DNA of 64,000 nucleotides from Candidatus Heimdallarchaeota archaeon (lineage in GTDB: Archaea > Asgardarchaeota > Heimdallarchaeia > Hodarchaeales > Hodarchaeaceae). Position numbers and translations under genes: made by a program. This document shows positions 23,496-27,641 of the stretch, one piece after another. The DNA is taken from positions 2,454,966-2,518,965 of the forward strand of contig CP070695.1 of assembly GCA_020353515.1 (NCBI GenBank), written 5' to 3'. Position 1 is the stretch's first letter. Each line of letters begins with the position of its first letter. The notes beneath the pieces were generated by a model. It did not search any database. It saw nothing but the letters and a program-made list of their open reading frames with translations, and was not told the DNA's origin.

Positions 23496-23825
23496 CTATT
23501 CCTCGCTGGATTCCTCCACGTAAGTGAGATATTTTATTGAGATCTGGTGTTTTTGGGAATAGTTAATTCCATCTCTTGATTCCTCAGCTAGGATTCGAAG
23601 ATTTCCAGGAACTTTAGAAAGTTTGATTAACGGAACATGTAATTCTACATAATGGTGTTCAGAAGTACCTAGGTATTGACCACGAACATTTCCTAAATCA
23701 TCAATCAAACGAACTTTGTATCGTTTAGACCCGTCTTCCAATATTAGACGAATATAAAAAGGAATAGGAACAGTAAATTCGGAGAATTCATCGCCCTCAT
23801 CGTCAACTACAACAATCTTTGGCAT
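23496..23825 (-). CDS. Hypothetical beta-rich protein
   Basis: 109-aa ORF tightly packed in the minus-strand gene run. Confidence 0.65.
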   Translation of the reverse strand: MPKIVVVDDEGDEFSEFTVPIPFYIRLILEDGSKRYKVRLIDDLGNVRGQYLGTSEHHYVELHVPLIKLSKVPGNLRILAEESRDGINYSQKHQISIKYLTYVEESSEE

Positions 23826-23851: not shown

Positions 23852-24955
23852 TTAAAATTCCTTATATTGTTTAAACTCCTCTAATTCTCTCTGCAATCGC
23901 ATTTTTCTCTCTATTTCCTCTTCTGTGGGATAAGGGGTTTCAGCCCAGAGATCTACCTCTGGTAGTCCTAAATTTTTCCGAACACGTTTTTCCAACGAAC
24001 CAAATCCAACACGAGAAGCCATGAATTTAATAAATTTAAACTTTACTTTAGAAGGAAACCGTTCCCATTCTTTAGCAAACCCCCCATCTTCGATATGACG
24101 AAGAACACCTTTTTGAATGTGTAATACTTCTTCTATTATTTCTTTATACCTCATTCCTCGGCTTAGAAGTCCATATTGTGATCTTTCGTCTAATAATCCA
24201 ACTTGATTAACTATTCCAAGATCCATCATATTCATAAAAGAGTGTTTCATGTTACCTGAAAGAATCAATTCGACCAGTACTGCTTCTTCGGGGTAACCAG
24301 CTTCAACGAGTAATTCTATGGGCTTCATCATAATCTGACTACTTGCGGGTCCAAATCCTTGTTCAGTGAACAGGTCAAGAATTGTCTCCTGTTCAAATGA
24401 TATTTCGATTCCAGCTTTGCTTAAACCACCCACAGCTTTGCTTAAGGCCAATAATTTGTCTTTAGCTTTCCCAGAAGCATCCTGATGAACCCCAATGAAA
24501 CTAAAATATCCCTCACCGTTTAAAATACATTCTCTTACTCCTATACCGATCATTCTTGGAGCTATCAATAATACATCGATATTAGAGGGGGGTATAATCA
24601 ATCCAAATGCAATATTATACCCGTGAGCGAAGATGATAACAGAATGTTCCCTTAAAAAAGGTTTCACTTGTTTGGTGAACACATCTTTCTGCACTTCATC
24701 TGGAACTAGGAGAAAAAGAGCGTCTGCTTGTTTAACTGCTTCAGAAATGTCAAATGTTGGAAATCCATCTTTCTGCGCTCTTACTCGATATTCATCATCA
24801 CGATTCCCTATGATGACATTAACACCAGCATCCCGTATATTTAATGCTTGTGAACGGCCTTGATTACCATATCCACAAATAGCTACAGTTATCCCCTTTA
24901 GAACAGTTAAATCCCCATCATCCTCATTGTATAATGTAACACCCATTCTTTTCAT
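23852..24955 (-). CDS. ilvC: Ketol-acid reductoisomerase-like protein, paralog A
   Basis: GYGNQG Rossmann, LLVPDE, FAHG, APRMIG, ETILDLFTEQ, GYPEE, SQYG. Confidence 0.85.
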   Translation of the reverse strand: MKRMGVTLYNEDDGDLTVLKGITVAICGYGNQGRSQALNIRDAGVNVIIGNRDDEYRVRAQKDGFPTFDISEAVKQADALFLLVPDEVQKDVFTKQVKPFLREHSVIIFAHGYNIAFGLIIPPSNIDVLLIAPRMIGIGVRECILNGEGYFSFIGVHQDASGKAKDKLLALSKAVGGLSKAGIEISFEQETILDLFTEQGFGPASSQIMMKPIELLVEAGYPEEAVLVELILSGNMKHSFMNMMDLGIVNQVGLLDERSQYGLLSRGMRYKEIIEEVLHIQKGVLRHIEDGGFAKEWERFPSKVKFKFIKFMASRVGFGSLEKRVRKNLGLPEVDLWAETPYPTEEEIERKMRLQRELEEFKQYKEF

Positions 24956-24961
24956 TTCCTG

Positions 24962-26065
24962 TCATAACCCATCATAGAAAGCTCTTATATTATCGATTTC
25001 TTTTTTGAGCTGGGGATATTGATTGATTTTATCGTCTGGGGGAAAATCTGGTTCTTTTTCTATACTCAATTTCTTGAAATTTAAATTATCACGAACCTGT
25101 TGCTCAAGAGCAGCGAACTTAGTATTCCCTTCGAAATACCTCATAATTTGGAGCTTCAGTTTACTCTCAAATGTTTCCCATTCTTTTACAAACTGCCCAT
25201 TCTCAATTTCATGCAGGATTACTCGTTGGATCTCTTCAACTTTTTTCGCAACACCTCGAAATTTCACTCCACGAGACATTTGCCCATATTGAGAGGTCTG
25301 GGAATGATAATTCATCTGTTTTATCATTCCTACATCAATTATCTTATCAACTGTGAAGCGTCCTTCTCCTGAAAGAATCAATTCAACAAAGATGGCTTCA
25401 GGGGGATACCCATCTTCTATTAATCGCAGTATTGATCTCAGGAGTACTTGCGTAAGCGCATACGAAAACGTTTGAGATGCAAATAAGCTTAATACTGCTT
25501 GATGTTTGAATGTAACCTCAATAGCTGGTCTAGTATCAGTCAATCCTCCAATCGCCTTAGTTAGAGCTAAAAGATTTTGCTTAGCATTCCCCGAAAAATC
25601 TTGATGAATACCAATAAAGGAAAAAAAACCTTTATTTTGAATGAAACTTTCTCTAATAGCAATACCAGGAACACGAGGAGAGAGGAGTAACACATCATTT
25701 TTTTCAGGAAGTGTGACTAAATTAAAAGCAACAGTATATCCACTAGCAAAGACAATTGTCTGATTCTCTTTCAAACTTGGATTTATTGTTTCGCTAACAA
25801 TTCTTACCATATCTTCATCTGATACAAGTAAAAGAATAAAATCAGAATGTTCGACAGCTTTTGGTATGTTAAAGATAGGAAAATCATCTTTTTGAGCTCG
25901 TTGCTTGTATTTTTCTTTTTCTAGTCCTAATATGACCTTAATACCTGAATCTCGTAAATTTAACGCTTGGGCACGGGCTTGGTTTCCATAACCGATTATT
26001 GCTACCGTTTTCTCTTGTAAATTGGAGACCTCACCATCTTGAGTGAAATAAATCTGAGTAGACAT
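24962..26065 (-). CDS. ilvC: Ketol-acid reductoisomerase-like protein, paralog B
   Basis: GYGNQA, SPRVPG, GYPPEAIFVELILSGE, HSQTSQYG. The DLFxEQ motif is degenerate (SLFASQ). Confidence 0.8.
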   Translation of the reverse strand: MSTQIYFTQDGEVSNLQEKTVAIIGYGNQARAQALNLRDSGIKVILGLEKEKYKQRAQKDDFPIFNIPKAVEHSDFILLLVSDEDMVRIVSETINPSLKENQTIVFASGYTVAFNLVTLPEKNDVLLLSPRVPGIAIRESFIQNKGFFSFIGIHQDFSGNAKQNLLALTKAIGGLTDTRPAIEVTFKHQAVLSLFASQTFSYALTQVLLRSILRLIEDGYPPEAIFVELILSGEGRFTVDKIIDVGMIKQMNYHSQTSQYGQMSRGVKFRGVAKKVEEIQRVILHEIENGQFVKEWETFESKLKLQIMRYFEGNTKFAALEQQVRDNLNFKKLSIEKEPDFPPDDKINQYPQLKKEIDNIRAFYDGL

Positions 26066-26079
26066 TGAGAATCAGCCTT

Positions 26080-27516
26080 TCAGATGATGTAAAAAGCTTT
26101 AAGCAAAAAGAAACCATAGAAGACTATTGAGATGCAAATTACTATCACCTCGAAAATAGAAAATCTATATTCTTTCGGTAGGATTTGATAATTGACAGCG
26201 AGAAGCCCAATTGAGAAGATGACACCACCAATATTTGCTAATGATCCTGCGAGTAAAACCATAGTAACAGGAGGAGTCCCAATTATTATTACGATCAACC
26301 AAATCACAACGAATATTCCAAGAATTCCATAATAAATAGGCCTTACATCTCCTTTAAACCTATCATGAAGACTCGGAAAAGTATTCCAGATGATATTAGC
26401 AAATTGACGCATAATGCCATCGATAACTCCCGTCCCATCAGCAAAAAACACTAAAGCGAACATGATGAGAATTAAAGGCCAAGCAAATGCAATCATCAAA
26501 CCTAAATTTTGAGCTAACACAGAGGTGAATCCAAAAATGTTTTCAGTAGCAGCTCCAGTGGGCACAAAATAATAATACAACGTACAGGGAAACACCATTG
26601 TGATAAGACTTCCGAAGAAGAAAATAGGCACCAATTCTAACAAGATAAACTTGTACCATTTTTTTGCACGCTGCTGATTCTCTTCATTTACTTTAGGCAT
26701 GTAGCCTTTCACCAAGAATTCAACTTTCTCTCCACCGAGAGCGCCTGGAATGTGACCCAGTCTTTTAGCCATTCCCCAACCTGTATCACGATAGTATGCT
26801 GAAATACTCATTCCAGCACTTGCAGCTAATCCCGCAAATCCTGCCACAGCACCTAATGCTAACCAATCAGCACCTTCAGGTAAATAACCAAAATGGAAAA
26901 AACCAGAAAAAACCTCAACTATCGTAGTAACAGGCACCGTCAGAAGGGTTATTATAATTAACAAGGGGATTATAATTAGGAAATGGATAATGAAGAACAT
27001 CAGACCAAGAGTTTTCATCACCTTTTTCCCTAAGAAAAGAGGTAGAAGAATAATCACAAGAGCAATAATGGTAAAAATAACCCACAAAAATTGTTGATCA
27101 GATGTCGGTACATCATTAATCATAATAGCGACAAATGTTACTCCGAGTAGGGCAGGGTAGTATGGTAGTATAGCTGAAAGCGTTCCAAGAACGATCCAAA
27201 CAGCAGTCCATGCTTTTTTACTAAACCACAAGCGATTTAAGCCAATTTGAAACGGTTCCCCAGTTAAAATAGTATATTTTGACGCACTTATTGCTGTGAC
27301 TGTCTGAAGGAAAATACTAATGAGAGCAACCCAGAGAATCAAAGGCCCATGCTTTACAATTAAATATGGACCGGATACAAGTTCCCCAGTTCCTAATCCC
27401 AGTCCCAAAGCAATGATCCCAGGGCCAATGAGGAATTTCAAATAATCCCTCCAACTTTTCACCTCAAATGGCTCAGGAATATCCTCTATTCCAGTGAATT
27501 CTTTGTCTGTAACCAT
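26080..27516 (-). CDS. Nramp-like/APC-superfamily secondary transporter
   Basis: GPGIIALGLGLGTGEL..P N-terminal motif, KYTILTGEP, about 11 TMs. Confidence 0.8.
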   Translation of the reverse strand: MVTDKEFTGIEDIPEPFEVKSWRDYLKFLIGPGIIALGLGLGTGELVSGPYLIVKHGPLILWVALISIFLQTVTAISASKYTILTGEPFQIGLNRLWFSKKAWTAVWIVLGTLSAILPYYPALLGVTFVAIMINDVPTSDQQFLWVIFTIIALVIILLPLFLGKKVMKTLGLMFFIIHFLIIIPLLIIITLLTVPVTTIVEVFSGFFHFGYLPEGADWLALGAVAGFAGLAASAGMSISAYYRDTGWGMAKRLGHIPGALGGEKVEFLVKGYMPKVNEENQQRAKKWYKFILLELVPIFFFGSLITMVFPCTLYYYFVPTGAATENIFGFTSVLAQNLGLMIAFAWPLILIMFALVFFADGTGVIDGIMRQFANIIWNTFPSLHDRFKGDVRPIYYGILGIFVVIWLIVIIIGTPPVTMVLLAGSLANIGGVIFSIGLLAVNYQILPKEYRFSIFEVIVICISIVFYGFFLLKAFYII

Positions 27517-27641
27517 TTTATCACTTCAATGTACCTAAAATCCAGAACACAAAGTTTAGCGAAATCTTTAAACTTTATGAGATTAATCGGATGCAAAATT
27601 CTATTTTTATAAAAGAATAATCATCACAAACTGTATGGGGT

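Follow-up and report, generated by a model that had tools for sequence, protein, structure and literature searches.

Tandem class I ketol-acid reductoisomerase paralogs of Asgard archaea probably form a heteromeric enzyme with one composite active site

Introduction

[quoted passage not shown] To our knowledge, it has been described only as class I homo-oligomers or as class II chains with an internally duplicated knot domain. A stretch of 64,000 nucleotides from contig CP070695.1 of Candidatus Heimdallarchaeota archaeon (the window) carries two adjacent KARI-like genes, A and B, each of which encodes only half of the expected catalytic ligands. What, then, do two incomplete genes placed side by side encode? 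The initial annotation of the window proposed that the losses are complementary, and that an A:B heterodimer has one complete site. The analysis described here makes it quite likely that the two proteins together make up an obligate heteromeric class I KARI with one live composite site. This heterodimer reading is strongly supported by comparison, not by biochemistry; the physical association of A with B, the single active site and the KARI chemistry of the complex are what we infer.

The two genes and the spacer between them are arranged as follows.

24962-26065, minus strand: KARI paralog B (P0002), 367 aa; the upstream gene and predicted donor of the lent half-site
24956-24961, minus strand: B-A intergenic spacer, 6 nt, TGA-CAGGAA-ATG (15 nt if A begins at 24946)
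23852-24955, minus strand: KARI paralog A (P0001), 367 aa; the downstream gene and predicted catalytic chain

The class I active site is built from two chains

The premise of the proposal, that a class I site is assembled from the halves of two chains, is documented by solved KARIs (PMC5940873, PMC13753588, PMC12202844). In the enzyme of Sulfolobus acidocaldarius, Mg2+ is placed between one monomer's E227/E231 and the other's D191, with D191/E195 as the ligands of Mg(I) and D191/E227/E231 as those of Mg(II) (PMC5940873). The class I pocket consists of the N- and C-domains from one subunit together with the second subunit's C-domain, and class II KARI reaches the same pocket within one chain by means of a duplicated C-domain (PMC13753588). 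In Staphylococcus aureus KARI, S251 forms hydrogen bonds with ligands, Mg(II) and transition-state analogues are bound by E230, and helix 131-143 of the N-domain closes the site (PMC12202844). Each site of a class I dimer comprises the Rossmann domain and first knot helix of one chain, with the Asp and Glu ligands of Mg2+, together with two Glu and the substrate-binding Ser lent by the other chain.

Each paralog retains a different half of the site

Both proteins belong to the KARI family. They match Pfam KARI_N (PF07991; A, 6.6e-54; B, 6.1e-47) and KARI_C (PF01450; A, 8.4e-13; B, 2.8e-14), and their closest solved chains are all KARIs, the top one for A being Sulfolobus 6JCV (E = 3.5e-65). 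A and B are 41% identical over 363 residues. Each has the class I architecture, a Rossmann domain followed by one C-terminal knot domain within ~330-370 aa; as two separate 367-aa genes with a Rossmann domain in each, they do not constitute a class II KARI. The pair shares several features with class I KARIs of the Ser/Arg subfamily (Sulfolobus and single-copy Asgard enzymes), namely the KARI_N/KARI_C composition, APR instead of APK, the two-residue insertion in ELxLSGE, and HSQTSQYG.

Individual residues were verified by position look-up and by HMMER alignment to solved KARIs, and those named in the initial annotation were all found as stated. A keeps H111, R134, D194, E198 and E229, and its Rossmann and lid motifs are intact (GYGNQG, LVPDE, APRMIG). 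It has N235 at the position of the second Glu and D256 at that of the substrate-binding Ser, and R258 also falls within this degenerate lent half. H111 had been listed among the retained residues of A; it is indeed present, but it is no hallmark of the family, most complete Asgard KARIs having Ser at that position. In B, the Rossmann motifs are altered (GYGNQA, SPRVPG, LVSDE), S108 and R131 are present, and Q189, S193 and S197 stand in place of its own metal-ligand side. The lent half-site of B is retained: E228, E234, H254, S255, T257 and S258 (HS255QTS258QYG). The full five-ligand set (Asp, Glu, Glu, Glu, Ser, corresponding to S. aureus D190/E194/E226/E230/S251) is thus found in neither chain. 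A lacks the equivalents of E230 and S251, B lacks those of D190 and E194, and only A and B together supply all five.

The reciprocal loss is conserved throughout both clades

Database searches with A and B gave ~215 Asgard relatives, which were sorted by the five ligand positions into three types. The complete proteins (145) read D-E-E-E-S. Among the 33 A-type sequences, D-E-E is invariant, and the fourth position is K/Q/N/R/W/T/A and the fifth P/D/S/N/E. Among the 34 B-type sequences, E-E-S is invariant, and the first position is S/N/K/G/A/Q/E and the second E/T/Y/K/D/S/N/I. In the numbering of A and B, D194/E198 are invariant in 33/33 A proteins and E228/E234/H254/S255/T257/S258 in 34/34 B proteins. 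The complementary site loss first noted in the window therefore recurs, at the same positions, in all A-type and all B-type sequences, and for this reason the reciprocal pattern is far beyond chance. A conserved half-site would make sense only with a conserved other half, and that half is present in the other paralog alone. This is what speaks most strongly for an A:B dimer with one live site and against separate homodimers.

In a maximum-likelihood tree, A and B each form one clade (SH-aLRT 99 and 100) with mirrored internal topologies, and the two clades group with a small clade of complete 365-aa proteins. The extent of the reciprocity was examined with 110 alignment columns, chosen for a conservation of at least 90% among the 145 complete Asgard KARIs. 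Both clades retain 59 of these columns, and three are lost in both by conservative changes. Eighteen are retained in A only (33, 34, 51, 54, 85, 87, 110, 114, 132, 135, 136, 190, 194, 198, 202, 203, 227 and 307). They comprise G33/R34 of the Gly-loop, N51/D54 of the cofactor loop, P85/E87, A110/N114, A132/M135/I136 of the lid, E190/D194/E198/G202/P203 of helix alpha-1, L227 and K307. The B-only columns number seven (235, 239, 242, 255, 256, 258 and 259). All seven fall inside the lent segment, 229-262, and none of the 18 A-only columns does (Fisher p = 2e-6). The same division is seen in mean conservation: for region 229-265 the values are 0.60 (A), 0.84 (B) and 0.83 (complete KARIs), and for the Rossmann domain 0.75, 0.65 and 0.72, respectively.

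A and B occur together and are both under selection

A survey of 400 Asgard genomes identified 156 with a KARI of this type. The tandem pair that the initial annotation suggested looking for is present in 11 of the 400, spread over three families (f1, f19 and f20), and B is followed directly by A in ten of the 11. In the exception, G150 (L044, 1495-6441), two inserted genes without a Pfam match, one of 308 aa on the opposite strand and one of 313 aa, separate B from A. No further KARI match was found in any of the 11 pair-carrying genomes, and the complete 4.94-Mb host genome has no KARI-family gene besides A and B. No examined genome holds only one of the two; B is not absent from relatives, as it is present in all those that have A. 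The single-copy Asgard KARI genes whose residues were read are all D-E-E-E-S. Other genomes with two hits (G143, G280, G297, G366 and G215) were rejected as independent reciprocal pairs: in these, either a complete Asgard-type gene is accompanied by a canonical His/Lys-type KARI, or the hits are fragments lying on different contigs. Within the host genus, the pair is present in 4 of 22 genomes, and one further genome has a distant KARI-like match (35% identity).

A wider scan covered one genome per species in 185,579 species, and its best 80 loci were considered. Ten Asgard records, named Hodarchaeum mangrovi, Hermodarchaeota and Promethearchaeota, have the pair, with both genes inside the fetched DNA in nine. 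The Asp, Glu and Ser ligands are present in every one of the remaining 70 loci, among them Thorarchaeota, Bathyarchaeia, Anaerolineae, Planctomycetes and Mycobacterium; in one locus, Asp occupies the third position.

Substitution rates were estimated against the nearest orthologs only, as dS (the synonymous rate) is saturated for more distant ones. The ratio of nonsynonymous to synonymous rates (dN/dS) is 0.07-0.08 for A and 0.13-0.19 for B, rough values given a dS of 0.8-2.1. By these estimates both genes are under purifying selection, and B does not show the ratio near 1 that relaxed selection would give. The lowest dN within B is that of the lent segment. A comparison of 12 species shows B to evolve 1.34 times faster than A; the ortholog identities of A and B correlate (r = 0.84). 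Because the A-B identity inside a genome stays at 34-48%, the duplication is old and free of gene conversion.

A model of the A:B complex and of its two sites

Structure prediction was applied to the A:B combination only, with clade alignments made for this analysis, in three runs and with three controls. The A:B model has an ipSAE of 0.90 (three runs), against 0.00 for the best of the three controls. This mark is reached by 58/80 solved complexes and 2/110 mismatched pairs, counts that are only a rough guide because of these purpose-made alignments. The runs agree in at least 92% of contacts, with a partner pLDDT of at least 88. The C-terminal ~37 residues of A (23852-23960) have a conservation of 0.63, compared with 0.41 in B and 0.48 in complete Asgard KARIs, and the last residues of A are predicted to contact B in the model.

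These results can be accommodated by the following scheme. An ancestral homodimeric Asgard KARI gene would have been duplicated in tandem, after which A would have retained the set consisting of the Rossmann domain and first knot helix, and B the lent set. Since A kept the first set and B the lent one, each A:B dimer would have a single complete site. This live site would be composed of the N-domain of A, D194/E198 of A, and E228/E234/S255 of B, and would bind two Mg2+ and depend on NAD(P)H. The symmetry-related site, composed of the N-domain of B, S193/S197 of B and N235/D256 of A, would be dead. The reaction would be the alkyl shift and reduction of acetolactate-type substrates, and the probable role of the product is in the synthesis of Val/Ile or in the route to 2-oxoisovalerate and pantoate.

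The changes in the presumed dead site do not look random: neutral or basic residues take the place of four or five acidic ligands. Clade-specific residues of B are A30, S129, Q189 (Glu in complete KARIs), R210, D240, M251 and L305. In the A clade, the specific residue Lys 237, which is 97% conserved, lies beside the lost Glu, and position 258 is mostly Arg or Lys. K237 and R258 of A, like Q189 and R210 of B, are newly conserved within their clades and would face the dead site. The basic residues (K237 and R258 of A, R210 of B) may represent charge compensation for a metal-free pocket. A more speculative idea, to which we give little credence, is that the dead site has been repurposed: the Rossmann domain of B together with K237/R258 of A would form a regulatory or ligand-sensing site controlling the live one, possibly coupled to an NRAMP-related transporter encoded next to the pair. 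The result would be a metal- or metabolite-gated reductoisomerase, with a substrate possibly outside branched-chain synthesis.

Evidence against the heterodimer and alternative explanations

An A:B heterodimer with one complete site, as initially proposed, is supported by clade conservation, co-occurrence without a third KARI, purifying selection on B and the complex model. The model comes with a caveat, and it belongs to a group of observations, given here and in the next two paragraphs, that weigh against the conclusion. The A:B score may simply reflect the KARI homodimers already solved, and any pair of KARI-like chains would be expected to pass. The model shows that the A and B chains can be placed together like a KARI dimer; a preference for AB over AA or BB does not follow from it. 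One B lineage (L012) has Glu/Glu at both lost positions. A and B also fall below the TIGR00465 ilvC equivalog cut-off of 226.15 bits, with 204.7 and 195.9 bits, respectively; other A and B types score 196-215, the nearest complete clade 217-224 and single-copy Asgard KARIs 248-252.

The scores below the cut-off are also consistent with a real heterodimer whose site does not act on acetolactate or acetohydroxybutyrate; the substrate could be some other 2-hydroxy-3-keto acid or 2-keto acid from a pathway connected with the conserved NRAMP-like transporter. We regard this as the most serious of the alternatives, although unlikely. KARIs are known as promiscuous reductases (PMC4353338). The pair never adjoins ilv genes in the loci inspected, and the genomic context of the pathway points in the same direction. 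The host genome has a dihydroxy-acid dehydratase above the ilvD cut-off, three AHAS (acetohydroxyacid synthase)-like thiamine pyrophosphate (TPP) enzymes, all below theirs, and one class IV aminotransferase (an ilvE-like gene). An AHAS small subunit and an HMGL-like (LeuA) enzyme are both lacking. Its only ilvD and an adjacent AHAS-like gene (G000:C1:3282000-3290000; L052 7685-16042) cluster with genes for inositol-2-dehydrogenase-like and IolN/creatininase-like proteins, a GPH sugar symporter and an aldo-keto reductase, a cluster that resembles a set for the catabolism of sugar acids or inositol more than it does an ilv operon. Among the 22 genomes of the genus, which are related and incomplete, three have the pair and ilvD, one (G071, 96% complete) lacks ilvD but carries the pair, in three (including a 99% complete one) ilvD occurs with no KARI, and 15 have neither; this profile is suggestive, not decisive. 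On the other hand, the position of the pair outside an ilv operon is a weak reason to place it outside branched-chain synthesis, as the single-copy complete Asgard KARIs likewise lie outside ilv operons and the context does not discriminate. Moreover, the composite site keeps every column conserved in complete KARIs, bar the three conservative changes, and the pair and the single complete gene exclude one another, a pattern that replacement of one by the other would be expected to leave. The presence of A and B as the only KARI-family genes in a genome with ilvD and an ilvE-like gene is indirect support for the reaction of EC 1.1.1.86, the Mg2+- and NAD(P)H-dependent conversion of 2-acetolactate to 2,3-dihydroxyisovalerate. 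Because the composite site would keep essentially everything that complete KARIs conserve, ordinary KARI chemistry appears the most likely activity of the heterodimer, and we lean towards it, though with less assurance than towards the heterodimer itself.

It is improbable that A alone is a homodimeric enzyme with an altered second metal site, and B a pseudoenzyme that plays no part in catalysis and serves in regulation, as a scaffold or in something unrelated. Some activity of A by itself is conceivable, as an A homodimer would retain the Mg(I) ligands D194/E198 together with E229, and A has all the Rossmann and lid motifs; B also evolves faster than A. However, positions 235 and 256 of A vary freely across its clade, so that no alternative ligand set is conserved there, and the residues that are 100% invariant in B (E228/E234/H254/S255/T257/S258) lie in its slowest-evolving part and have as their only known role the completion of a partner's site.

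That A and B are two separate homodimers with two new, unrelated functions, adjacent only because of their origin, is very improbable, for although paralogs of homomers often separate after duplication, each homodimer would here pair a conserved half-site with a drifting one, in both sites, and the B-then-A unit has been maintained in all but one species with no genome carrying only one gene.

Gene layout and the conserved neighbour

Other features around the pair are as follows.

27595-27615, minus strand: A/T-rich TATA-like element TTTATAAAAATA, upstream of the transporter gene; recognised from sequence only
26080-27516, minus strand: 478-aa multi-helix membrane protein (P0218), 14 nt upstream of B; a conserved neighbour, not part of the enzyme
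23496-23825, minus strand: 109-aa open reading frame (ORF), 26 nt downstream of A

The initial annotation described two 367-aa genes 6 bp apart. Both ORFs are present, but the true gap is probably 15 nt, because the database protein for A has 364 aa and starts at the second ATG (24946), with AGGA 9 nt upstream of that ATG. A thus probably begins at ATG 24946. The layout of the spacer, with AGGA before the second ATG, suggests co-transcription and possibly coupled translation of B and A. In other pair-carrying species the B-A spacers range from a few to ~60 nt. The TATA-like element at 27595-27615 is a candidate archaeal promoter for a transcript of the transporter gene, B and A. A run look-up for the locus returned only DNA runs of sediment metagenomes and no RNA runs.

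A larger, seven-gene operon was considered and rejected: only the transporter gene is conserved beside the pair, and three hydrolase/methyltransferase genes are absent from the inspected loci. The 109-aa ORF is without a Pfam match (even at E = 5), and none of the related loci that were fetched has an equivalent; it is an orphan, or possibly no gene at all.

The 478-aa membrane protein is encoded beside the pair in six other species, with 61-92% identity, directly upstream in five and 1.8 kb downstream in one. It has no Pfam match, even at E = 5. Its look-alikes in a protein language model are NRAMP/MntH clusters at 0.98, which is a lead only. Pfam Nramp is matched by 6/59 of its distant homologues, and its family profile matches one solved protein, 7QIA (E = 5e-9), which is cited in a paper on a Mg2+ transporter of the SLC11/NRAMP family (PMC8806188). 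An AlphaFold2 model built from five sequences had a mean pLDDT of 47.8, too poor for a fold search. The protein is best read as a distant transporter of the NRAMP/SLC11 superfamily, possibly one for divalent cations. Elsewhere among the lineages, the pair or the single KARI has a NIPA/EamA-like transporter at its flank. A functional link between KARI and transporter is conceivable, as KARI needs two Mg2+ per site.

The neighbourhood also bears on the origin of the pair. Single-copy Asgard KARI genes (L049 and L051) lie directly downstream of a small Ras/Arf-like GTPase gene and converge on a gene for an EamA-type transporter. One pair locus (L011) keeps this GTPase/EamA synteny, which suggests that the duplication happened in place, in tandem.

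Comparison with known systems and significance

Known class I KARIs exist as homodimers or as dodecamers of homodimers, each dimer having two identical sites. In the A/B pair, by contrast, each gene would supply half of the ligands, and the mixed dimer would have just one complete site. Class II KARIs (E. coli and plant enzymes, ~490-590 aa) are alike in that one Rossmann domain is served by two knot copies that build a single site (PMC5940873, PMC13753588). There the knot is duplicated inside one chain with a single N-domain, whereas in the A/B pair the whole gene is duplicated, a Rossmann domain is present in both chains, and the origin is independent, within an Asgard class I clade. The parallel with class II that was drawn in the initial annotation therefore holds as a shared outcome reached from an independent origin: A/B would be a class I KARI that has become an enzyme of two genes and a single composite site, converging in outcome on class II. 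A search for longer relatives of A found no B-A fusion, which is weak evidence, and only two unrelated fusions, of 661 aa and 754 aa. The latter (P0221), a natural fusion, joins TPP-enzyme, ACT (AHAS small-subunit-like) and KARI domains, so that a single chain carries successive steps of the pathway; it has no relation to the Asgard pair.

Heteromers of an enzyme and a catalytically impaired paralog, with sites shared across the interface, include trypanosomatid deoxyhypusine synthase, AdoMetDC/prozyme and the subunits of NAD-dependent isocitrate dehydrogenase. In these systems, complementary degeneration after duplication has led to one live site, one dead site and mutual dependence. The A/B pair differs from them in fold and chemistry, in that both partners are incomplete rather than one intact and one dead, and in being archaeal and operon-encoded. 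KARI paralogs retained in one genome are also found in Streptomyces, where IlvC1/IlvC2 and Svi2 were purified and assayed separately and each complements an ilvC1/ilvC2 double mutant (PMC4353338). Unlike A and B, they show no reciprocal ligand loss, and no heteromer is implied. A and B show the combination expected of an obligate heteromer, reciprocal clade-wide conservation of half-sites and strict co-occurrence. Full-text literature searches gave no description of a heteromeric KARI or of Asgard KARI paralogs.

If the proposal is true, a two-gene KARI with a split site would be a third KARI architecture. It would also repeat, independently, the transition by which class I gave class II, seen at a point where two genes share one site, and would be a natural test case for the change from homomer to obligate heteromer by complementary degeneration, with ~34 pairs available for ancestral reconstruction. 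Annotation pipelines call A and B generic NAD(P)-binding proteins, or would count two KARIs, and metabolic reconstructions of Asgard archaea can thus misjudge their capacity to make valine, isoleucine and pantothenate.

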